Below are positions 6,505 to 54,475 of a stretch of 64,000 nt of DNA, in pieces (position 1 is the first letter of the stretch; the number at the start of each line of letters is the position of its first letter). A model generated the notes under the pieces. That model was not told the origin of the DNA. It saw nothing but the letters and a program-made list of their open reading frames with translations, and did no database searches. The translations under genes were made by a program, and so were the position numbers. Origin of the DNA: Lama glama (taxonomy: Eukaryota); assembly GCA_028534125.1 (NCBI GenBank), contig CM052816.1, positions 67,458,001 to 67,522,000 on the forward strand, read 5' to 3'.

Positions 6505-6644
6505 GGGGAAAAGATGTAGCTCAGTGGTAGAGTGCATCCTTAGCATGCACGAGGTATGCACTGGGTCCTGGGTTCAATCTCCAGTACCTCTGTTAAAAAA
6601 TAAATAAATAAACCTAACTCATCCCCCTAAATAATAATGTTTTT
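6505..6644 (+). mobile_element. tRNA-derived SINE (camelid Vic-1-like)
   Basis: A box TAGCTCAGTGG, B box GGTTCAATC, A-rich tail; TSD aaaaacagagca at 6493-6504 and 6645-6656. Confidence 0.9.
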
Positions 6645-7559: not shown

Positions 7560-7683
7560 CTCCATTAGGACGTCCAATACCAGAATCAAAGCCATCGGAA
7601 GAGTTGTGTCGTCGACGATTCACATCATAACGATTTTCTGTCCATGAAAAGTTTTCAGAATGCTTCTCAAAATTCAGTGACGA
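7560..7683 (-). CDS. GPBP1: GPBP1 coding exon (124 nt, SSLNFEKHSENF...RPNG+G)
   Basis: Acceptor gatttgtttcag|TCG and donor GAG|GTGAAA, phase 0 to 1. Lies inside ORF 7546..7770. Confidence 0.97.
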
Positions 7684-7945: not shown

Positions 7946-8083
7946 TGTGTGTGTTTATTTTTATTTTTTACTTTGGGGGAGAGGTAATTAAGTTTATTTA
8001 TTTATCTTTTTAGAGGAGTTACTGGGGATTGAACCCAGGACCTCATGCATGTGCACTCTACCACCTGAGCCATACCCTCCCCC
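7946..8083 (-). mobile_element. tRNA-derived SINE (Vic-1-like)
   Basis: Reverse-complement A and B boxes; TSD aagagcacca(c/t)tctg at 7931-7945 and 8084-8098. Confidence 0.9.
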
Positions 8084-8599
8084 AAGAGCACCATTCTGAA
8101 AAAGTTCAACAACTGCATCTATTTACACAAAAACTTTAAAGGTAAAATGCCTGTAAGGAAAACAAGGCAAAATATGCATTTCTTTTATAAGAAAATGTAA
8201 TATTGTGTATCACACACTATTTGATTTAAACAGCTTACGGTTTTCAACTCAGAAAATTATGACAAAGGAAGCTACAGTTTTAAGTTCTCTACATTTCCAA
8301 ACTCCTCTTTCTCCAAAGCAAATGTTTTAACAAATTTATCAAAAAAAAAAGTAAAAACAAATTAGTACAAAGGGCACAGAATACCTCATTTAAAGAATTA
8401 GACTTCATTTAAAGAATGAGGAATGTATGAAAACAAAAATTCACAACTATTCACCTTCACTCTCTACTTTCCCATATTCCCAGCTAAAGAAATCATGTAA
8501 TCTCTTGAAAGCTTAGACTGTGGCCCTAATATGCATGTACTAAACTTCTTAGTCTGTGTCCCCACAGTGGGAAGAGGTATCCCAGTGCACCAAAATGAC

Positions 8600-10700
8600 T
8601 GATAAGAGTTCAGAAAAATTCAGCAGTAGGATAGGGAAATTAAAGTGATCTTACAGGTGGGGCCCCTAGGCTAATTTAATGTACTGTCGCTTTGTTTTAC
8701 AGTTGATGCAAATGTTATATGCTTGTATTGAAAATGCTCAAGATTCTTCCATTCAGGGAATGTCACAGGTTGACAGGTGATTCCCATTCCCTTCCAAGTG
8801 GTCTAGCAAAAACTGTATAAGCTACCAGAAAAGAAAAGAAAATCAGAGATGAGGTTGAAGACTTGATAGATACTGGAATATTCAGAGGCTACTTCCCAGT
8901 ACAACAGAGCCACCTGCCTAACACACACACCAAGTATGCTCCTTTTTAAAATGGAATGTGGCTCTTGCCCTACTGCTGACCCCTTATTAAAAAACAAACA
9001 ATTCAAACTAAGGGCTACCCAATAAAAGAGCCCAATAGGGCTCTCTTGATCAAATGGAAATTATGTGTTCAAGGGTGCAGCTAGCCTGGCCCTATAATTT
9101 TAGTTTTGCATGCAGAAGTGGCAACTACCCTTTGGAATAAACTTTATTCCCCTCTACCACCTATAACAAGCCACTGGTTCAATAAGACTCTCAAATCACA
9201 GAGATTAAGCCTGGTTAGCTGAACTAATGGTTCAACTAAGTTAAAAGATGATGGTGTCCACTGCTGCCATCCAGCCCAACAACTCTGGAAAACAAAATGG
9301 GTAAGTACCAATCAGCTCAATGGAATAAAATAAAAGCTGTGACTCTTGCCTTGGATAATATCCTTAAGGACATTTTATATTTTTCTGAGTCTTGGTCTGT
9401 TGTCAATGGCCTAGTCATCTTGTCCGTCATCCAAAAAACTATAGACTAGCAGATAAAAACACTTCTCTGGGGTCACACACTGCGGGAAATTGCAGCTACT
9501 GCTCAGACAATCTGAGTCACTCATGTTGATACAGTAAGGCTTGCTGTCTGACGAAGAGTGAATGTAATTGAGAACGACTGAAGAAAGAATACAGATCAAA
9601 TCTTTGGCACACTACCCTAGATCCATCATCACACGAGACATGGAACACACCCACTATCACAGACTGATTACAAAATAAAGGCCTATCTTTCCGATGCAGA
9701 AGCCACCACTACATGCCAACTTGTGACCCCTGCCAAAAGGTGATCCATTTGTCTCAACTGTGAACAAGAACACATTACACAAGGAGAACTACATTCAAAC
9801 CTCTGACTAATTCATGGAGCTATCCATGAAGTCTCATCACTGTTGAAACTTTTTCAGATTATAGTGTTACTGCTGCAGTCTGACAGGCTAACTCTGGTCA
9901 CACTATTGTGATTCTTGAAATTAATCCACATTCTATCATGTTTTTGGCATTCCAGACAACTAACAGACCACTAATAGTACATCTTTTGTCAAAGGGGTCA
10001 CCCTGCTTTGGTCCATTTTTCAAAGTGCTCAGTGGACATTCCATACTATCAACCACAGGCATCTGCTTTCAAAAGCATTTTAACAATCTCCTCAAAATTC
10101 AACAACCTACAACTCTGTGTCCCTCATCTCTTCACAAATCTTAGTAAGACAGTTTGGTCCATGAACACAGCGTAGCCAAAAAGAGATTATATCCTCTTAG
10201 CCACTTCCTGGGTAGTAATCGGGATGTTCTTTCTTTGTGAAGAGTTATGAGAGTATATAGACCTACATTAAAAATTCAAGACTCTGCCCTGATTATCCCT
10301 GAACATGATGTTTCTTTCTTTCTCCTAAGAGCAAATGCAGGCCAGGCCACCCCTCAGGGTAATGGCCAACCAAAAAGGAATTCAAACAATCTGGTCTGGT
10401 CACCTGGATTCTCTTGACTAAATCTGCTTGTGCACACTTCTTACCGAGTCCCCCCTAAAATACCCAATGTGGACTAAGGTGAGGGTGAGAGACCTTTATA
10501 ATAAGTCTCTGCAAATTATTTACAAATGCTCCTTCCCCACTCATGTCTGGCTCCTCTGGATAAAAAAATCTGGGTGCAGGAAGGGGATTTTTTTTTTAAA
10601 GTGAAGTTAGAGCTATGGGAATGGGGACATACCGATTTCAAGGCTGTTAAGGGGGAGCAAAAACCCTAGCACTTGCAGAAGGAGTATCTTTGACCCCAGA
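8600..10700 (+). pseudogene. Decayed ERV-L-type pro/pol (protease, RT start, tether, RNase H, integrase)
   Basis: Frameshifted translations in ERV-L order: VILQVGPLG (protease); QKLYKLP..EDLIDTGI..TSQYN (RT N-terminus); YAPF and LLIKWK (tether); TAAIQP, SAQWNKIKAV, ESWSVVNGL, VTHVD (RNase H); CDPCQ, VETFSDY, HVFGIP, QWTFH, FNNLLKIQ (integrase); EVRAMGMG (IN C-terminus). Confidence 0.85.
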
Positions 10701-11059
10701 AGGTGCAGGGAGAAAGGAGAACAATTAACGTTCTCTCTTGTCCCCTAAAATCAGCACCATTGTGAATCCAACAGCAGCTCAGGATAAACGGCTAGGTTTG
10801 TATCCCCACCCACATTTTTTGAAATTAAAAAAAAAAATTGATGTGGCCACGTACAGCCCTTACAATTCTGCTGTGCCAGATGTCAACAGCAGCTCCTGAA
10901 CACGAATGTGTAAAAAACACCCTTCAATTTAATCTATGTCATGTTTCTGGCATTCCAGACCACTAACAGTCCAATTAATAGTACATCTTTCATCAAATGA
11001 TCACCCTGCAATGGGCCAATATTCAAAGTAGTCAACAGACATTTCATATTCCCTACCTG

Positions 11060-11570
11060 CACAACTTTGTTTCGTTCTAATAAAAACTCACATGATTCTC
11101 CTAACACCTGAGTGGTCTTAGGTTATGCCTTGTACAGCAACTGAGGTTGCAACTAATGATGACATTGTGCATGTGTAACCAAGCAAATGTAACAGCAATC
11201 CAAATCAAGTTTAACAACAAATCTCAAACTGGAGTGATCTGTGTCCCTTCAGGTAGTATGCTCGTATGTGGGGGAAAATATGTGATGGAATGTCTGTCTT
11301 CTATTGAGGATGAGGGTTGCTTTTTGGTTCATCTTATTGCCCTTAAAACTGTAAGTAATATATCAAAACTCAAGTCAATTTATACTCCCTTGGGTGGATT
11401 TCAATGGACAATAGAGTGGCATTAACCATATACTGGTTGGCTTAAAAAAAAAAAAATCTACTGTTCCCCCCATACATTATTCACAATTGCTTAAATCCTG
11501 GTCTTACCATGCTACTTTGGGACATTGATAGTAGCCTTCATTAAACTGTTATAAGACAAATTAAATCCAT
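11060..11570 (+). pseudogene. Gammaretrovirus-type env remnant (SU C-terminus, immunosuppressive-domain relic, TM relic)
   Basis: ORF 11147..11425 contains ICVPSGSMLVCGG..MECL....GCFLVHL, the Cys pattern of class I env SU. MDNRVAL at 11404 continues as (D)HIL after a 1-nt shift. Hydrophobic LIVAFIK near 11527. Confidence 0.75.
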
Positions 11571-11668
11571 TTAATTTGTTCATCACATTAATCAAAATAG
11601 CTGACAGAGTGGTACAATCATGTGAAAATTCAAGTTCGGCCAAAAACATGCATGTTTGATGGGTAGAC

Positions 11669-12083
11669 TGTTGGGATTAAGCAATCCACCATGGGCCCTA
11701 AGCATCCCTGCATGTTCTTACTTGTATGCCAAAAGTCTTGACAACTCTTTCTATTGCCCATTTCTCAGGGTTATGTTCGCAGAGAACAACATTGAGGAAT
11801 AAGTGATATCCTTCTTTGAGACAAAGAGCAATATTATAAATGTGGTAGATTTCCCACCCCATGTAAGGTTATCAACAACCCGGGCCCTCCATGTCAACTC
11901 TCAAAGGGTTTAAGGGACATGAAGAACAAGTGCCAGAATCATGCATATGCTACCTGCTGTATTATGAATAGTAAAGCTGTCTCTGACCCTGCTGTCTTCT
12001 GCCAGCATCCATGAACAGCAACAGGCTAGCTTGTTACTATTACCTTGAAAGTAGGATAAAATCCCAGTAGACAGATTCTGACA
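11669..12083 (+). mobile_element. 3' LTR of the provirus (LTR40-like, ERV-L class)
   Basis: TGTTGGGA...TTCTGACA ends, purine-rich tract just upstream, TATAAA near 11835; resembles recalled LTR40 consensus. Confidence 0.75.
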
Positions 12084-17281: not shown

Positions 17282-17344
17282 CTTTGTTGATGATGGTGGG
17301 GTAGGAAAATTAAGCCAGGCTGGAGCAAAGTCATGCTGCGCCAT
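17282..17344 (-). CDS. GPBP1: GPBP1 first coding segment (63 nt, MAQHDFAPAWLNFPTPPSSTK)
   Basis: ATG at 17344-17342, 21 codons, donor AAG|GTATT at 17281, phase 0. Not in the ORF track; read directly. Confidence 0.97.
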
Positions 17345-18628: not shown

Positions 18629-18760
18629 GTGGGGAGGGTACAGCTCAGTGGTAGAGTGCATGCCTAGCATGCATGAAGTCCTGGGTTCAACCCCAGTACC
18701 TCCATCAATAAGTAAGTTAAGTAAGTAAGTAAATAATAAACCTAATTACCCCCACAAAAT
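18629..18760 (+). mobile_element. tRNA-derived SINE (Vic-1-like)
   Basis: A and B boxes, TAAG-rich tail; TSD atta(t/c)aatcatcaca at 18614-18628 and 18761-18775. Confidence 0.9.
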
Positions 18761-19795: not shown

Positions 19796-19961
19796 GGGGG
19801 GAGGGTATAGCTCAAGTAGTAGAGCACCCACTTAGCATACACAAGGTCCTGGGTTCAATCTCCAGTACTTCCTCTAAAAATAAGTAAGTAAATCTAACTA
19901 CCCTCCCTCACCAAAAAAATAAATAAATAAATATTTTAAAAAAAACAGAAAAGCAAAAAAC
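19796..19961 (+). mobile_element. tRNA-derived SINE (Vic-1-like)
   Basis: A and B boxes; TSD cacttatgaaac at 19784-19795 and 19962-19973. Confidence 0.9.
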
Positions 19962-30459: not shown

Positions 30460-31085
30460 CATTTTTTTTAGTTGAAGAATAGTTGATTTACAATGTGTTC
30501 ATTTCAGGTATACAGTGAAGTGATTGTTTTCTATATATGTGTATATTTATGTATATATATATTCCTTTCCAGATTCTCTTCCATTATAGGTTATTAGAAG
30601 ATATTTTGTTCGTTTTCATTTGGGGGTGGGATGGTGATTAGGTTTATTTCTTTATTTTTTGAATGTAGGTACTAGGGATTGAACCCAGGACCTCATGCAT
30701 GCTAAGCATGCACTCTATCACTGAGCTGTACCCTCCCCCCAGGTTATTACAAAGTACTGAACATAACTCCTTATGCTATACAGAAGGTCTTATTACCTAT
30801 TTTATATATAGTAGTGTGTATCTGTTAATCTTAAACTCTAAATTTATCCCTTTCCTCCCCCACCGTTTCCCCTTTGGCAAGCTATAAATTTCTTATATGT
30901 CTGTGAGTCTATTTCCATTTTTGTAAGTAAGTTCTTTTGTATCATTTTTTAAATTCCACATATAAGTGATGTATATTTATCTTTCTGTCTGATTTCCTTC
31001 ACTTAATATGATCATTTCTAGGTCCATCCATGTTGCTGCAAATGGCATTATTTCATTCTTTTTTATGGCTGAGTAATATTCCTGT

Positions 31086-31169: not shown

Positions 31170-32220
31170 TGTTTCCACTTTAAAAGCCAGTGATTAAGAC
31201 ACCATAGCATTAATATGTGAATAGAAAGAAGTATCAGCTGGAGAGAACAAAAGTTCATACACCCAACACATATGGAAATTCAGTATGTGAGAAAAATTGG
31301 GAAAACTTTCCTAGTTCAAAGCTTACCCAAAATAATCATCAAACGGATAAAAGATTGAAAAGGAAAAAAAGCAAAGTCATTATAGAAAAAGTAGGGGAAA
31401 TTTTTACGGTATCAGAAAGGGGAAGGGAAACCTTTCAAAGTAAGACACAGAAGTGATAAAAATATATTTACATATAAACTAAAAGAACATTTTATATGAC
31501 AAAATTCACAACCAAGGTCAAAGGAAAGACACAGCAACAAAGGAGGGAGGATGGGACACAAAGAATACCACAAAGCATATATTTTCCTTCATACATAAGA
31601 TGCTCCTACAAATCAACAGAAAAAGAACTCAATTAAAAAATGGAGAAATATAGAGGCCACAAGAAAAGATCTTATATACAAAAATTTTTCATTCTTATTT
31701 GAAAGAAAAGAGCCAACACCTGAGGAAAAAGTTTGATTCCCCATTAGCACTGGAAATTTAAGACTGCTATGGAGAACAATTTGGCACAGCACTCAAATTA
31801 CACTCAAAAATTCCACTTATCAAAATGTACTCCACATTTACAAGATATTCACTAGCATTGTTTATAATAGTATAGAAAAGAAAGATGAAACAACTTAATG
31901 TATACTACCAGTAGCAATCAGTTAAGTATTATGCGGCCAATAAAAGAACGGGTTAGCTTTACGCATATTAATATGGAGTAACTTTCAAGGTATCTCCTTA
32001 AGTAAAAAGATCATAGAGCAAGGTGGATCATGCTACTTACTCAGAAAGAAAAAATATTACGTGCTTATATATACATGAGGTCTCTCCAGAAAAACCCATA
32101 GAAAACTAAGAGTAGTTTCTTCAAACAATTACTGCTGAGCAATAGGAAAGAGGGTGACTTTTCTCTAAAAACTCTTGTACTATTTGTCATTTGCACTGTG
32201 TGCATGTATTCAAAGTAATT
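31170..32220 (+). mobile_element. Ancient L1ME-like fragments
   Basis: Degenerate ORF2-end and 3' UTR motifs, e.g. gatattcactagcattgtttataatag. Confidence 0.6.
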
Positions 32221-34960: not shown

Positions 34961-36290
34961 CTATGGTACCATATCACAGGTTAAACAAAAATTACGTTAG
35001 AAGACTAATGCATCATGGTTCAACAATTTTAAACATGTTATAAAATGCAATCTAAATACAGCTGGTTTCTGCTCAGTGTTGTCCCTTCAACTTACACTTA
35101 CCTATTTCTCCCATCTAGTCTCCCTTCTGGTAGATCATATGGTCCCCAACCACTAGTATCTATGTAACCCAGCCATAACAACATTACTAGCAATGTTTAT
35201 CAATTTACAATTTCAAAGCATTCAGCATTCATTATTTCACTTGATTCTAATGAAAACTTTGTGAAGCAGTAGCAGCTTTATTAGAGAAGGAAATAATAAT
35301 CTTATTAAGGTTGGCCTAGCCAACATCAAATAGCTATTATTTCCTAGATGGGATGAAACCAGGATTCAAATTCAGGAACTGTTTACTCTGTATTCACAGA
35401 ACTTCAGAGCTAACAAACTACAAGAGCTCAGGAATTTTACATTTTTGCCTTGTTTGCTATTAAATGCTCAGCACCAACGAAAGTGCAGGCACATTATAGG
35501 CACTCAAACATCTACTGAGGCAATGAACATCTTCTCTAGCACGAATTAGTACTCAAGAAATAAAAATCTCAGATTCACTAGAGTCAATGTTTTACATTTA
35601 ACATATTAATACTACTTTCTCCTTTCCAGTATAGAAATGCCATTTATTTTCCAAGTATGTTTAAGTATAAAATTAGGTAATATCTAACATTCCAAGCCAC
35701 TCAAAAGAAGATTGTTCTACAAATTAAAGATGGCATTATTTTGCAACAGGTCTTATTTCACATACCCATAAAAACAATTCTCCCCTTTCAATCCAAATTT
35801 CCTATAAAAGAATTTAGGAAAGAAAAGATGTCCACCAGGTTTTAAAATAAAGTAAAAAGAAAAAGCCAAATGCTACCATTTCTGTTTATCAGCTACTGTT
35901 CTACAGATTTGACATGATACATAACTTATCAAGGAAAAGGTCACAAATAGTCCCACACATGTAAGTTCAATTGATATTCAACAGAGGTATTTCAATGTGA
36001 TTCAGCTGGATAAAGAGTCAAACTCATTTGACACAACACTGTAAAATGATTATGAATCAATAAAAAATGTAAAAAAAAAAAAAAGCAAAACTGCATTGAC
36101 AAAGTCAGGTCAATCTTACTTAATAAGACTTAGACAGGTTTTGTTTGGAGACTGCAATTTCCCCAGTGATAGATATATTCAACCATAATTTTCCTTCACA
36201 TTCTGTACTGAGTTTTGCTGAATCCAAATATGTATATAGAAGGCATGTATTCACTATGTACAACTGAATATTAATAAACACATAGGTATC

Positions 36291-36790
36291 NNNNNNNNNN
36301 NNNNNNNNNNNNNNNNNNNNNNNNNNNNNNNNNNNNNNNNNNNNNNNNNNNNNNNNNNNNNNNNNNNNNNNNNNNNNNNNNNNNNNNNNNNNNNNNNNNN
36401 NNNNNNNNNNNNNNNNNNNNNNNNNNNNNNNNNNNNNNNNNNNNNNNNNNNNNNNNNNNNNNNNNNNNNNNNNNNNNNNNNNNNNNNNNNNNNNNNNNNN
36501 NNNNNNNNNNNNNNNNNNNNNNNNNNNNNNNNNNNNNNNNNNNNNNNNNNNNNNNNNNNNNNNNNNNNNNNNNNNNNNNNNNNNNNNNNNNNNNNNNNNN
36601 NNNNNNNNNNNNNNNNNNNNNNNNNNNNNNNNNNNNNNNNNNNNNNNNNNNNNNNNNNNNNNNNNNNNNNNNNNNNNNNNNNNNNNNNNNNNNNNNNNNN
36701 NNNNNNNNNNNNNNNNNNNNNNNNNNNNNNNNNNNNNNNNNNNNNNNNNNNNNNNNNNNNNNNNNNNNNNNNNNNNNNNNNNNNNNNNNN
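36291..36790. other. Assembly gap (500 N)
   Basis: Run of exactly 500 N. Confidence 1.
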
Positions 36791-36955
36791 ATTTTGCTAA
36801 TTTGTGCTCTCTCTTTTTTCTTCTTTGTGAGTTTGGGCAGAGGTTTGTCGATTTTATTTACTTTTTCAAAAAACCAGCTTTTGGTTTGATTGATTTTTTT
36901 CTATGGTCTTGTTAATCTCTATTGTATTTAATTCCTCTCTGATCTTTATTATTTT
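36791..36955 (-). mobile_element. Low-divergence L1 ORF2 fragment abutting the gap
   Basis: aggtttgtcgattttatttactttttcaaaaaaccagcttttggtttgattg is antisense L1 ORF2. Confidence 0.85.
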
Positions 36956-38099
36956 TGAGCTACTTTTCTAACCTGCCTTCCACTAGAAAAGGTTTCTGAT
37001 CCTCTTAAGCTCCACTCAATTTAACCATGATTATAAATTTAAATTTACCAAGCATTTTCTCCTTTTGATGATTTTTTCAATTGTGTGTAGAACTCATTTC
37101 TGGAGAATTGACCACTTACTTCATAATCAAAGTCGATGTGTGGGTTGACAAATATTCCTCCTGGCTCCAGTTATAGGGGGCCCAGTTTCCCTAATTGGCA
37201 CTTCCACATCTGTGTTTCTCCCTCTTTACTAGGAGGTATGGAGGAACACCATTAGCATGAGCACAACTATCAACAAAATTTTTAAATGTTCTCTTCAATA
37301 TGTGACATTTAAAACACAGCCTCTTCTTGTGACATCTATAATTTTAAAGCTACAGTAGGAATATAATGTATGTAAATTGTAGTAGATAAAGTGAAGAAAA
37401 CGTTTTGCAGTGTTTTTTAAAAAATTGTGATCTATTTCAACATATTGTTTCCCCTGTCATCGTTGGAAATGGAATACAAGGAACCCTAGAGATGTAATTT
37501 CCACCACCCCCTGCACCTTGTTAATGACTGGGTGAGATGAGAGAAACTTGAGTCAAGAGCTGGGCTACTTTTGCTACCTCCTGACTCTAGGTACAATAAA
37601 TATGTGGGACACTGCTTAGGAATAGTCTCTGTGATGGAATTTCCCTAGTATTATCCTCTTAGATTTCTAAGTTCATTTTTGGGGAGCACTCTCCACTTTG
37701 GGCTCTGAATACCCATTTTATGATAGGAAATCCATCATGTACTTTAGAAACTTCAGTGAATCAACAGCTTCCTAGTGCAACTGAGTGGCAGTCCCGCCAA
37801 ATCATTCTACTTAAGTGCATCAATGCCTCTTGTAATACTGAGTCTAATTGCCTAATGAGCATATAGGGTTACAGACTGGAGGTTAAATGTCATGATCAAA
37901 AGCCAATCAAAGTATATCAGATATGGAAGTAAAACTAAAGATTTCTCCTTTTGATACCTATTATTCAGCCTTTAATTTTCAGAATTAGAGTAATCATAGA
38001 TTACTTCAACTTCACTAAGACTAGAAGCTGTGTTCACACTAACCGCTGGCTTTTCTTAAAATTCATAGGAATTAATATAGTAATAGTTTATGTTATTAG

Positions 38100-46408: not shown

Positions 46409-46510
46409 TGTTTTTTGTTTGTCTGTTTAATGCAGATACTGGGGATTGAACCCATGACCCTCTTGCATGCTAAGCGTGCGCTCTGCCACTGAGCTATTAC
46501 CCTCTTTCCT
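46409..46510 (-). mobile_element. tRNA-derived SINE
   Basis: Reverse A and B boxes; TSD catcctctg at 46400-46408 and 46511-46519. Confidence 0.88.
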
Positions 46511-47649
46511 CATCCTCTGCATTTTGGGGGTTTCTGTTGCAGAAGCAAAATTTCCAGCTGCCTTTGCTTCAAGCTACGTGGCCAAACCACGATTCGAAAC
46601 CCCCTTCCTTCTGGTGAAAACGCCATGCTTTTGCCTCCATCTAGAAAGAACCAGGAGTATAATTTTGGTCACCCGAGAGGTCCACTTGGGTCAGAGGAGG
46701 TAGACAAACCTGCAGAAATTTCCGTAGAGATAACTTTATTACTCATAAATTGGGTGAAGTAAATTTGCAAAAAGCATTTTGCTACTTACAGACCCAAAAG
46801 AAAAGTAAAATTGTTTTATGAGAGTGGATATTTTCTGAAGTAAATGGCTCTGCTAATTAGAATGTCAAAGTTCTGAAACATGTTCATATAGAATTAAAAG
46901 TGTTGTATAAATTGTTACCATTGTGTTGTAATACTCTGATTGCCTTAAAATTTTACCCTTCTGCATCTGTGTCAAGTACCCCTGTATAGCTCCTGATTTA
47001 TTCTGAAGGATCTGATATCATTTATTTTCAAGTGCAGTACTTTCCTCTGCTTGCAGGTGGCACCTCTTTAATCTTCATAAAACCCTTAGATGGTTAACCC
47101 ATTTTCCCTTCACTAAGAAATGGATAAGCAACCTCTAGGTGGTCAAATTATGAGTAAGTTATTTTACTATTCTGTATTTTCCAGGTTTTAAGTAATAAAT
47201 ATGTATTTTTTTCTTTTTTGAAAGATGTTAAGTACAGAAAAGTGCAAAGAAAAACATAACTAATACCTGTGTTCCCATAATCCAGAGCTCATTTATAACA
47301 TTTATCATTAACAAAGTAATACTAAATTAGTAGCAGTTACGGAATGGAGGCATGAGATGATGTGCTTACCTGACAGCTTCAAATCCACTGGGTGGGCTTT
47401 CAGCGTGAGCTCCAGCCCTATAACCTTGGCGCTGCTGACTTTTTTCCTCATTTTTTTCTAATTATAAACAAAATAAAACATTATCTTGTATTACATTATG
47501 TAAAGAGGCAGACTGATAGTGAAATCTGAAGACAGAAGTGTACTAAATGTATAAAAAGTAAAACAGTATTTTCTCAAGCCCAGATACTCCAGAGAGTAAA
47601 ATCACCAGTAAGGAATAATTTTAAAAGATGATGAAGATGCCTTTTTCCT

Positions 47650-50059: not shown

Positions 50060-50142
50060 AAATGAAAAATAAAAAATTAATTAATTAATTAAAAAAAAAA
50101 ACCCACCAGATTCTTTTATTCATTTCCAAACAGAAATTAGAG

Positions 50143-50272
50143 GTGGGTAGGGTATAGCTCAAGTGGTAGAGTGTATGTTTAGCATACACAAGGTCCTGGG
50201 TTCAATCCCCAGTACCTCCTCTAAAAATAAGTAAGTAAACCTAATTACCGCCCAGTCCACCGCCAAAATTAA
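50143..50272 (+). mobile_element. tRNA-derived SINE (Vic-1-like)
   Basis: A and B boxes; TSD agaaattagag at 50132-50142 and 50273-50283. Confidence 0.92.
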
Positions 50273-51299
50273 AGAAATTAGAGAGCAAATGTAGATAAGA
50301 GTTTCAAATGACTGCTTCTCTGGGTACAGGGGTTCTTTTGGAGTGAAAGAAATGTCTTAGAACTAGATAGGGGTGATGGCTGCACAACTATTTCACTTTT
50401 TCATATACATACATTCTACCAACATGGTCTACCTTCAGCTTTCCAATGGCTAAGGAATGACTAAAAAGGAAAGCAAAAAGCAAAAAATGAGTTACCTATA
50501 TTTCCCTTTCATGTCATCATTCTCACTTGGCTAATACAAGGATTAACATAGGTAAGAAAGGGTATGATAAGGTTCCTTGGTGATTCTTATTTGTTAGAAC
50601 ACCACTGCCTTTTTTTTTTTTTTCTTTGTTTTGGAGACAAATTCTGGTTCAAGCAGATAACATGGCCTCTGGGGGCTGCGATGGCCTTCCTCGTTACTCG
50701 GCCATAGATGCGATATGCTGCCTTGCACTTGCTTGGAGTCTATAGAGCTGTCCCCCCACCCCTTGTGAATCCACAGAAATTCTGTGCCTGTGGGCGTCAT
50801 GAATAGTATGTGCAACTGGAACAGCAGTAAAGAGCAGACACATATATTGTGCATGTCTCCTCTGTTGCTGTGCGGCTTCTTTGTGCCAACAAACTTCACT
50901 TGCAAAACACAAGTTCAAAGATAGAATTATTAAGAATTTGAAGACTGCACAGCAGAGCATTAAACCTAGTGTGGAGCATTTCTGAGCTCAGGGTCTTGTG
51001 CTATTGGGTATGTTGTAAGTCTATGAAGCCCATTCTGGTTCCAGGGCCCAAATGCAGCTTCTCAGGGTGTTTATCATGTGCTGAGCAAAAGGCAGAGCCT
51101 GGGAAAGTACTGCGATATTTGGGGACATCATTTGGAATTAAAATCAATTTTCTTAATTATTTAATTTCTAAATGGCATGGATTATGCAATAGCATTATGG
51201 GTGGGGAACTTAGACGTTTTCTAACTGGCAGGTCTCTTCTATGGCCCTATCTATCATTGTTTGATTTTCTAATTTTCTCTTCTTTATCTGTTCTGTCTC

Positions 51300-52944: not shown

Positions 52945-53045
52945 TTCTATTATTTTTATTATTTTAATGGAGGTACTGTGGGGATTGAAGCCAGGTCCTC
53001 GTGCATGCTAAGCACACTAAATATGCTGAGCTCTACACACTCCTA
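52945..53045 (-). mobile_element. tRNA-derived SINE (more diverged copy)
   Basis: atggaggtactgtggggattgaagccaggtcctcgtgcatgctaagcac. Confidence 0.8.
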
Positions 53046-54475
53046 TCCCTGCTGCTCTTTCTATTTTTTAAAAAATATTTTCCCTTTAAAATATTCACAA
53101 TCATTATGATACCCTGGAAATTATAAGAAAGGTTCATTCTGATGATGAGTTTGGGGGCACTTTTAGGGATGGAAGCCAGAAGAAAGTTGTGATATACCAT
53201 TGTACCAGGCCTTTAGTCTCTCTTGAAGTACTTTTGAGAGTAAGGGCTAATGCTCAATTAAAAGCCATCTAGTTGGTAGCTGGAGTCTCCTATGTTACAA
53301 AACCTAGACAGGATTGGCCTGAATGCTCACTGCTTACTGTGGGAAGTCCAAAGCCCCTTCTGAGACTTCTGTGAATCTCTGGGAGCGAGGAGGCAGGTGT
53401 TGGGTATTACAGTCTTGTGGTCACCCTTATGTATGTAAAGCAAAGCATTTGGAACAAATCTTGGCACGCTTTACAGGTGATCATTATTTCCCCCTCTTCA
53501 TCTTCTTTCTCCTTCTCTTTTGCATCCTCCTCCTCTTTATTACTGTGATGACCTCTGACTCTGAGTTCCTGCTTCCACTGGACACTGGCCAGTCAATGCA
53601 CTGTCTCATCATTTCTTACTCAAGGTTACACATTCTGCACCACTTGGATCCATTGGTGAGTTCCATTCCCTTTCTCAGTTGATACACACTCAAAACCCCA
53701 CAACGCCCGTCTCCCCCCCAACACACATGGGTGTGTATATCTGTTAACTTGAAATCTTTTTCCTTTTATCAGAATTTAGTGAAAATTTGGGGTGACAAAT
53801 GTGATATGAATACTTCCAGCTCAGCAATGAACTCCTTCCACTTGAAAACTAGGCACTTCTTAAAAGCCCTTTCCCCAGGAGCTGTTCTATTGGCTTCCCA
53901 TCCATATAGAAGCTCAGCAACACTCTGGCTGACTTGTTTCTCTTCCTTTCTCCTGGGTCCTTTCTCTTTAGCACACTCTCCTTCCTGATTGCAGTCCCAT
54001 ATGCAAATTCTTATGCAGAGTACATAGTTCTGGCTGGTGTCTACTTCCAAGCTAAGGTCCAGACCCACTTTTGCATATTCAAACCCATCCAAATATTCAG
54101 CAGAATGAAAAGGCTTTTATTTACCATGCTCTATTCTCCTTCTCAGGACATTGGTGATTGTAAATTTCATTTTCTACCTCTTCTTTGCACAAGGCAGGTA
54201 GAGTGAGGGAGATTTAGTAGGAAGGTACTGGGAGAAAGACAAACTGGGATAGAAGTGGAGCATCCTAGGGAAGAGATTAACATTTGGAGAATAAGTATCC
54301 ATAGTAACATGGCAATTTCAGTCTGGAAACTCCAAACTTAGAGGAATTCCATTTGTAGGGAATTGAGGCATACTAAGAATTCTATCCAAAACAAATCAAA
54401 GGAGAGGAAGAGTAGAGACAAGACCCCCTCCAAACGGGGCTAATGGCTAAGATAGTCAACCAACTCCACACAGTT

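Follow-up and report, generated by a model that had tools for sequence, protein, structure and literature searches.

A decayed class III-like provirus with a putative gamma-type env remnant in an intron of the llama genome

Introduction

The pairing of a class III pol with a class I env has been described for several endogenous retroviruses (ERVs), namely HERV-S (HERV18/HERVL18), HERVL32, HERVL66 and HERV-L chain 4244 (PMC4724089), as well as XtERV-S and, in crocodilians, ERV3 elements (PMC4299795). All four of the former are missing a dUTPase and retain a recognizable immunosuppressive domain (ISD) in env (PMC4724089); HERV-S is associated with LTR18 and HERVL66 with LTR66 (PMC5753468). The non-mammalian examples (XtERV-S, AnERV8 and the crocodilian elements CrocERV16, 17 and 41) combine a class III gag-pol with an env that is gamma-like in XtERV-S and AnERV8, and XtERV-S, an intact element, has identical LTRs and a dUTPase. 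Canonical ERV-L elements, in contrast, are devoid of env and carry a dUTPase after integrase (with MLT2 LTRs in the case of HERV-L), and the env that they lost has been called unidentified (PMC4724089). The env-bearing ERV3 elements named in PMC5753468 are HERV18, HERVL32 and HERVL66, but not HERVL40 (HERVL_40; LTR40A/A1/B/C), an ERV3 group left unclassified in Table 4 of that study. Among class I elements, HERV-W provides an example of an intact, co-opted env (Syncytin-1).

Here, we describe an ERV fragment in a 64,000-nt stretch of the Lama glama genome (hereafter, the window), which an earlier sequence-only reading had interpreted as an ERV-L-type pol joined to a gammaretrovirus-type env, relying on the established premise that some class III lineages such as HERV-S carry a gamma-type env (PMC4724089).

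Results

The element occupies a GT-AG intron of 9,598 nt (17281-7684) in a minus-strand gene, between the first coding stretch (17282..17344, 21 codons from the ATG, with a GT donor at 17281-17280) and the next coding exon (7560..7683, with an AG acceptor at 7685-7684), the two being in phase. This gene is presumably GPBP1; an Atlas look-up returned a chordate cluster with no gene name. The intron contains the whole element, all parts of which lie on the plus strand together with a single LTR, so that the antisense intronic insertion proposed earlier is borne out.

The recognizable 5' end of the element is a protease remnant (8504..8800, plus strand) with an active-site-like LDCG identified by eye (Asp at 8516). 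The previously reported series of pol motifs is real, but it begins near 8504 rather than at 8600. Landmarks placed by eye and compared in spacing with Table 2 of PMC8278194 are collinear, running from the protease Asp (8516) through the RT Asp (8978) and RNase H (9226-9530) to the integrase His (9624), in agreement with the proposed plus-strand order of protease, RT start, RNase H and integrase. The RT start (8806..8990, plus strand), also recognized by eye, is followed by a deletion: the RT-to-RNase H distance is 83 codons vs. 411 in ERV-L, and approximately 330 RT codons are gone, which confirms that most of RT was deleted. The end of the tether domain and an RNase H remnant (9020..9535, plus strand) match other decayed copies (phmmer E-values from 6e-7 to 4e-4).

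The assignment of this pol to class III draws on spacing and on one motif. The protease-to-RT distance of 154 codons is close to that in ERV-L (156), followed by XtERV-S (167) and foamy virus (193), whereas all nine class I Pols compared have 204-207 codons. The integrase motif IERWNG around the catalytic Glu, present in a paralogous protein (P0016) and in MuERV-L, is decayed in the window's own copy, and it occurs in none of 19 class I and II reference Pols, 18 of which have a VER-type motif (the remaining one is without the region). Judging from these features, pol looks class III. In this respect the element resembles MuERV-L and HERV-L, as it does in the HX4H start of its integrase and in the by-eye collinearity of the integrase core and tail.

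Database searches with pol were sparse in yield. Six matches at E<=0.001 among 1.84 billion proteins were obtained for the RNase H-integrase frame (9252-9842), one of them a 96% near-self copy; Pfam RNase_H was matched by one of five others scanned (E 0.0059, below the family cut-off), and none of eight further cluster members matched any retroviral family. Pfam scanning of the window detected no retroviral family in three whole frames or 16 fragments. PDB searches with the pol pieces, an alignment (A1) and P0016 retrieved nothing relevant, a word-based search with A1 against longer proteins gave 0 of 4,849 candidates, and profiles of class I and class II Pols yielded no significant pol match (best iE 3.0, at 9297-9527). 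Likewise, no related locus was confirmed among viral or metagenome contigs, no Telescope annotation of an orthologous human copy was found, and motif searches of sequence collections with class III references gave a single candidate locus (L010).

Integrase is represented by more than one piece. The first copy (9612..10216, plus strand) comprises the zinc-binding part (HX4H) and the catalytic core in shifting frames; it is matched in tblastn by P0016 (E 7e-10), and by-eye comparison shows it to be collinear with the C-terminus of MuERV-L Pol (PMC4724089 supplement 2). Its catalytic positions, placed by eye at 9787, 9970 and 10073, are spaced by 61 and 34 codons vs. 59 and 36 in ERV-L. A C-terminal tail remnant (10553..10680, plus strand) was recognized by eye against the MuERV-L C-terminus, and the stretch from core to tail measures 164 codons vs. 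about 200 in MuERV-L by our own count (PMC4724089 supplement 2). Where ERV-L has its dUTPase, a plus-strand stretch (10250..10490) shows a faint by-eye likeness to this enzyme with no above-background score: with a profile built from 14 dUTPases of phages and betaretroviruses (none from ERV-L), its score is equalled or exceeded by 68 of 114 decoys and by 60 of 100 shuffles. Pfam dUTPase has no match among the window fragments, and a PDB search with the frame at this position returned nothing relevant. The dUTPase initially seen by eye is unsupported by profile scoring, and none is detectable in the element, an outcome compatible with the dUTPase-less HERV-S, HERVL32, HERVL66 and chain 4244.

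A second copy of the integrase core (10860..11057, plus strand), overlooked in the first reading, duplicates 9867-10054 and lies immediately 5' of env. The two copies align over 182 nt with 76% identity (K2P 0.28; 0 of 300 shuffles as good; blastn E 2e-22). They differ by 18 transitions and 25 transversions, compared with 216 and 186 in eight other repeat pairs, a non-significant excess of transversions (Fisher p 0.15). A segment at 10840-10905 considered as a piece of RT was rejected, as DNA alignment shows it to be integrase core. Nothing in the element matches the spacer at 10691-10850. The plus-strand segment that follows the second core (11060..11205) has two candidate readings, either mid-SU env or another pol-derived duplicate; the latter, an alignment of 9140-9313 with 11063-11223, is significant under one of four scoring schemes.

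The strongest env signal comes from a block of 43 codons (11210..11338, plus strand) corresponding to the C-terminal cysteine block of a gamma-type SU. In a blind search, its best PDB match is Syncytin-1 (residues 250-290; E 0.0058 and 0.027), ranked first among 177,635 sequences. Two gamma-type env profiles free of syncytins (7 and 13 sequences) place it first among 1,248 tile-frames with E-values of 0.6-0.8, which are non-significant alone, and its score is reached by none of 300 shuffles. A profile of five beta-type env sequences has no match in the element. Pfam env families were detected in neither whole frames nor fragments of the window, while a word-based search with env gave 0 of 124 candidates against longer proteins and one of six, a 98% near-self fragment, against proteins of similar length.

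Downstream, an anchor-like stretch (11400..11570, plus strand), hydrophobic from 11486 (KD 2.39), is the probable TM membrane anchor, although without gamma specificity: its score is matched by 27 of 196 decoys with the gamma profile and by 7 of 196 with the beta profile, and a PDB search with this part returned nothing relevant. The spacing from SU to anchor is 62 codons vs. 181-190 in seven references, which indicates a deletion of approximately 120 codons. A furin site, an ISD and the CX6CC motif are absent in all three frames, their region falling inside this deletion. The absence of CX6CC is therefore uninformative on the ancestral env, and the env subgroup is unreadable because the ISD region (still recognizable in HERV-S, HERVL32, HERVL66 and chain 4244) is deleted here. 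Similarly, CXXC occurs in none of the three frames of 11060-11640, and the SU N-terminus is missing from the element. The resemblance of env to the upstream flank was dismissed as a chance effect of low complexity. We ascribe a gamma-type env remnant to the element with moderate confidence. The class I env formerly assigned to 11060-11570 is statistically supported at 11210-11338, but the rest of that span is without such support.

The 3' LTR (11669..12083, plus strand) is present as proposed, with a length of 415 nt, TG...CA ends, TATAAA at 11835 and AGTAAA at 11970; presumably, it is LTR40-like. The preceding polypurine tract (11654..11668, plus strand) does abut the LTR as expected, but it is weak (9 of 15 purines). 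No second LTR copy is present in the window at E<=1, nor any internal LTR in the element, and neither gag, which in class III ERVs is devoid of zinc fingers, nor a primer-binding site is recognizable in the window, consistent with the reported lack of a 5' LTR and gag. A 21-nt LTR pattern occurred at 0, 1 and 0 loci in three collections; the one candidate relative examined (L009) was rejected as a chance match, having only a 21-mer in common. Class III ERVs generate a 5-bp target-site duplication (PMC4299795 Table 1). The 5' end of the element is missing; in 8201-8700, the 5 nt that follow the LTR are found three times and the 6 nt not at all.

Discussion

The most probable interpretation of this locus, which we consider likely, is that of a single, now dead provirus. 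The ancient mammalian lineage behind it would be class III (ERV3), probably HERVL40/LTR40, with a class I (gamma-type) env in its genome. In contrast to env-less canonical ERV-L, the element holds an SU cysteine block at 11210-11338. Compared with HERVL40, to which a class III-looking pol and a putatively LTR40-like LTR would tie it, it has neither a 5' LTR nor gag, retains little of RT and carries a duplicated integrase core; compared with XtERV-S, it is a decayed fragment. Syncytin-1 is merely the nearest solved sequence to its SU block, and there is no sign of co-option or close kinship in the element.

Because the integrase duplicate precedes env, pol and env may share an origin in one recombinant genome or stem from a fusion of two class III copies. 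In the latter case, pro-pol (8504-10750) would belong to one element and the part from integrase copy 2 through env to the LTR (10860-12083) to another, the two having been inserted in tandem or one inside the other and then joined by a deletion. Env would even so adjoin a piece of class III integrase, but the main pol need not belong to the env-bearing family. We regard such a fusion as unlikely, even though a second integrase core, 24% diverged and immediately 5' of env, fits two fused elements equally well, and the missing 5' end means that neither a target-site duplication nor an LTR pair attests a single insertion. The changes between the copies do lean to transversions, but the excess is non-significant, and their K2P distance would be within the range for identical copies decaying since early placental times. 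Moreover, the two parts are not separated by an LTR remnant, the spacer has no matches in the element, and the possible third pol-derived piece, whose non-canonical order would favor fusion, holds under only one of the four schemes.

It is considerably less probable that the env call is false and that 11210-11570 is a non-coding 3' leader or unrelated sequence in an ordinary env-less ERV3 copy. The missing Pfam family and env motifs, and the lack of any relative beyond the near-self match, would be expected in this case, and miscalls of a HERV-L env from a hydrophobic stretch before the polypurine tract have been reported (PMC4724089 supplement 2). Nevertheless, the blind PDB ranking, the concordant first rank under both syncytin-free profiles, the shuffling result and the location of the SU block at the expected place of env all argue against it. 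Least probable, to the point of being remote, is that an env-less ERV3 copy received the env scrap through a separate class I insertion, or that pol is itself class I. Old ERVs often contain secondary insertions (PMC4724089), and alignment scores fail to separate class I from class II Pols for this pol family, so that by score a class I pol is conceivable; however, no class I LTR or repeat pair was found around env (the signature by which a separate nested element was to be recognized), env is in sense at its canonical place before the polypurine tract and LTR, and the protease-to-RT spacing and the integrase motif of the paralog are unlike those of all nine class I Pols. Compatible with the preferred interpretation, and possible though somewhat doubtful, is the view that no lineage-specific capture took place: class III would have had a gamma-type env from early on, or ancestrally, and canonical mammalian ERV-L would have lost it. 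Env is encoded by all three ERV3 groups of crocodilians and by further ERV3s of both clusters, its lack being read as a derived state (PMC4299795), and XtERV-S and AnERV8 pair an ERV-L-like pol with a covalent-type env, but class III envs cluster with varied class I groups (PRIMA41, HEPSI, MER50-like), pointing to repeated captures (PMC4724089).

For the favored single env-bearing provirus, the following history may be envisaged. An env-bearing class III virus would have become endogenous in an early placental mammal, and template switches in reverse transcription could have produced a defective genome with the integrase core repeated before a cut-down env, which then presumably integrated in the observed antisense orientation into the host intron. 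In this orientation, the poly(A) signal of the LTR leaves the host transcript uncut. Two gaps relative to P0016, of 12 codons after THVD and of 6-7 codons in integrase, are common to the window and a further copy (P0005); assuming orthology, some pol deletions would predate the split from the P0005 lineage. The 5' LTR and gag would have been lost afterwards, the remainder decaying neutrally. The longest stop-free run in the element is 106 codons, a length reached by 16 runs in the window; the element has no coding capacity and does nothing today, in keeping with the earlier view of a decayed fossil rather than a working gene. The claim that this locus records an env capture could not be upheld, given that the pol-env junction is broken by the integrase duplicate, the TM markers are deleted and the architecture is already published.

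With the pairing of class III pol and gamma-type env already described, the locus is mostly ordinary, adding one more probable case to the pattern that credible class III envs are without exception class I-like (PMC4724089). Its significance would rise if HERVL40 is not yet catalogued as env-bearing, as it would then bear on ancestral env loss vs. repeated capture in class III, and an old, apparently shared insertion could date the lineage. A bolder proposal, which we rate as rather improbable, is that LTR40/HERVL40 represents an uncatalogued env-bearing class III virus of early placentals, and that the duplicate marks the junction at which env was imported from a second class III genome. Such a virus would have had an ERV-L-like pol and perhaps a dUTPase, now decayed, unlike HERV-S, HERVL32 and HERVL66; among mammals it would correspond to XtERV-S, and its env would be a candidate for the one lost by canonical ERV-L.

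An assembly artefact is excluded because 14 DNA sequencing runs, seven of them flagged as a possible source of the DNA, contain 95-98% of 381 sampled words. In addition, five RNA runs contain 20-43% of the words and another one 6%, in unstranded contigs, which is compatible with intronic pre-mRNA.

Pol Region of the Provirus

The decayed provirus at about 8504 to 12083 (+ strand) is, with moderate confidence, a dead class III-type (ERV3/ERV-L side) fragment carrying a short gamma-type (class I) env remnant, a combination already described for other lineages. Its pol is real, though badly decayed: the RNase H-integrase frame (9252-9842) matches 6 of 1.84 billion proteins, all gene calls on contigs that presumably represent other decayed copies in host DNA. 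No retroviral Pfam family was found in three whole frames or 16 fragments, and a PDB search with pol gave no retroviral match. One of five scanned pol relatives, P0006, matched Pfam RNase_H (E 0.0059, below the family cut-off), and eight further relatives yielded no retroviral family match. With a profile built from 19 class I/II Pols, 9297-9527 ranked first, at an iE of only 3.0. Landmarks placed by eye, the first a protease-like LDCG at 8513 and the last an integrase tail near 10680, keep the canonical order, as the sequence-only reading had it, although its start at 8600 lies about 100 nt inside the element. Most of RT is deleted, as also proposed there, and only its first part is left (83 codons between RT and RNase H landmarks, by eye, vs. 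411 in ERV-L). The proteins P0004 (52 residues) and P0020 (90 residues) are gene-caller products on chance ORFs of the fossil (9297-9440 and 11156-11422) and are no evidence of a gene. Elsewhere in the window, tblastn with the RNase H paralogs P0007, P0008 and P0015 gave weak matches at 31707-31820 (E 0.06-0.33), which may reflect chance or another decayed ERV piece.

Three lines point to a putative class III pol. The protease-to-RT spacing of the element is 154 codons (landmarks by eye); Table 2, in the available part of PMC8278194, lists 156 for ERV-L, 167 for XtERV-S and 193 for foamy virus, and the class I Pols have 204-207 (9 of 9). A paralog, P0016, whose RNase H and integrase align with the window (E 7e-10), carries the motif IERWNG, as in MuERV-L, and this motif occurs in none of 19 class I/II references (one of them without the region). 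By-eye comparison also finds the integrase core and tail collinear with the C-terminus of MuERV-L given in supplement 2 of PMC4724089. The earlier assignment to an ERV-L-type pol is supported as probable by layout and by the P0016 motif. Against it, alignment scores, in a comparison with class I and class II references, fail to tell those two classes apart for this pol family. A faint dUTPase-like patch, noted by eye near 10340-10420 where ERV-L has its dUTPase, is equalled in score by 68 of 114 decoys under a 14-sequence profile built without any ERV-L dUTPase. In the same Table 2, the foamy virus and MLV integrase rows look interchanged, and only the ERV-L integrase values were used.

Probable Env Remnant and Order of the Element

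Support for env comes from one block, 11210-11338. In blind PDB searches, Syncytin-1 (residues 249-290) was the best of 177,635 sequences, with E 0.027 for a 156-residue frame; a 52-residue part, picked once the block had been noticed, gave E 0.0058. Two gamma-type env profiles, of 7 and 13 sequences and excluding syncytin, placed the block at the top of the 1,248 tile-frames in the window (iE 0.6-0.8), and its score was reached by 0 of 300 shuffles; these tests are not fully independent, all scoring the same 43 codons. A five-sequence beta-type env profile had no match in the element. From the block to the hydrophobic stretch there are about 62 codons, as compared with 181-190 in the 7 of 13 references having both landmarks. 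The furin site, fusion peptide, immunosuppressive domain and CX6CC would have lain in the lost portion, and none of them was found in the three frames. The anchor part is not diagnostic for env type (27 of 196 decoys score as well against the gamma profile, 7 of 196 against the beta profile), and PMC4724089, in its accessible portion, reports false env calls in HERV-L from a hydrophobic stretch before the PPT. Of the class I env remnant previously proposed, the 43-codon SU block carries the support, and TM contributes neither markers nor a diagnostic anchor; we regard the env reading as very probable.

Along the + strand the order is pol, the integrase core again, 150 nt of unassigned sequence, the env block, the anchor, a weak PPT and the LTR (11669-12083). 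This second core, directly before env and absent from the sequence-only reading, repeats 9867-10054 at 10860-11057 (182 aligned nt, 76% identity, K2P 0.28; blastn E 2e-22, 0 of 300 shuffles as good). Its transversion excess relative to eight other repeat pairs of the window is not significant (p 0.15), and 11063-11223 also matches the RNase H start (9140-9313), in non-canonical order, with significance under one of four scoring schemes. The duplicate is compatible with a single insertion of a template-switch product and with two class III copies joined through a deletion. Either way env adjoins an integrase piece of class III, which speaks against a stray insertion of class I. No LTR piece was found inside the element. 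The proposed env capture would be an event in the history of the family, and this one copy is no proof of it.

The relative P0005 (cluster P0010-P0013) matches 9389-9971 and shares with the window two gaps relative to P0016, of 12 codons after THVD and 6-7 codons in integrase. It is probably, judging by these sequences, the same insertion in another mammal; alternatively, the shared gaps would mark a deleted subfamily rather than an orthologous insertion.

Relation to Described Families

The element, whose LTR resembles LTR40, is a likely candidate member of HERVL40. It is built in the same way as HERV-S, HERVL32 and HERVL66 and, unlike canonical ERV-L, which has no env, carries an env block. 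In the available text of PMC5753468, HERVL40 appears with LTR40 among the unclassified ERV3, and HERV18, HERVL32 and HERVL66 are described as ERV3 whose env is ERV1-like. According to the sections seen of PMC4724089, every credible class III env found there is class I, env snatching is frequent among class III elements, and the original env of HERV-L is still to be identified; PMC4299795, likewise in part, reports that all three crocodilian ERV3 groups have env and takes its absence to be derived. Excerpts of PMC8278194, PMC10536682 and bioRxiv 10.1101/2024.07.05.601823 describe frog elements that combine class III pol and gamma-type env. Going by the listings, no paper found in the literature, including a search on GPBP1 with ERV, describes HERVL40/LTR40 with env; Dfam and Repbase, outside this search, may well record one. 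The accessible portions of PMC9604959, PMC7649802, PMC12907019 and PMC7499964 hold nothing on the HERVL40 family, and Figure 2 of PMC4299795, which by the part available marks env-bearing ERV3 families, may cover it together with supplement file 6. It appears improbable that the element stands for an ERV-L-like mammalian lineage that bears env, is uncatalogued and shows its recombination junction.

Genomic Setting

A minus-strand gene harbours the + strand element in a GT-AG intron of 9,598 nt (17281-7684), bearing out the antisense insertion proposed earlier; the exons on either side are in phase. The host gene is putatively GPBP1, as in the sequence-only reading; protein clustering gave only a chordate cluster. 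At the word level, individual junctions aside, the element sequence is no assembly artefact: 95-98% of 381 sampled words occur in 14 DNA runs (6 study codes, 6 organism codes), of which 7 carry a flag for possibly being the source of the window DNA and 2 come from the same sample as one of these, leaving 5 runs in 3 studies. RNA contains 20-43% of the words in 5 runs, with strand absent, and intronic pre-mRNA explains this content. CpG is depleted to the same degree as in the flanks. Nothing suggests a working gene, and the description as a fossil holds, the longest stop-free run being 106 codons, a length reached by 16 runs in the window.

Short tRNA-like SINE copies, presumably of a camelid type, which they resemble, occur on both strands at 6505-6637, 7950-8086, 18629-18738 and 19796-19944, with more copies of the family at 30591-30742, 46411-46525, 50129-50278 and 52948-53097. 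A 500-N assembly gap (36291-36790) lies beside sequence of very high AT content (36001-37000 has GC 0.15).
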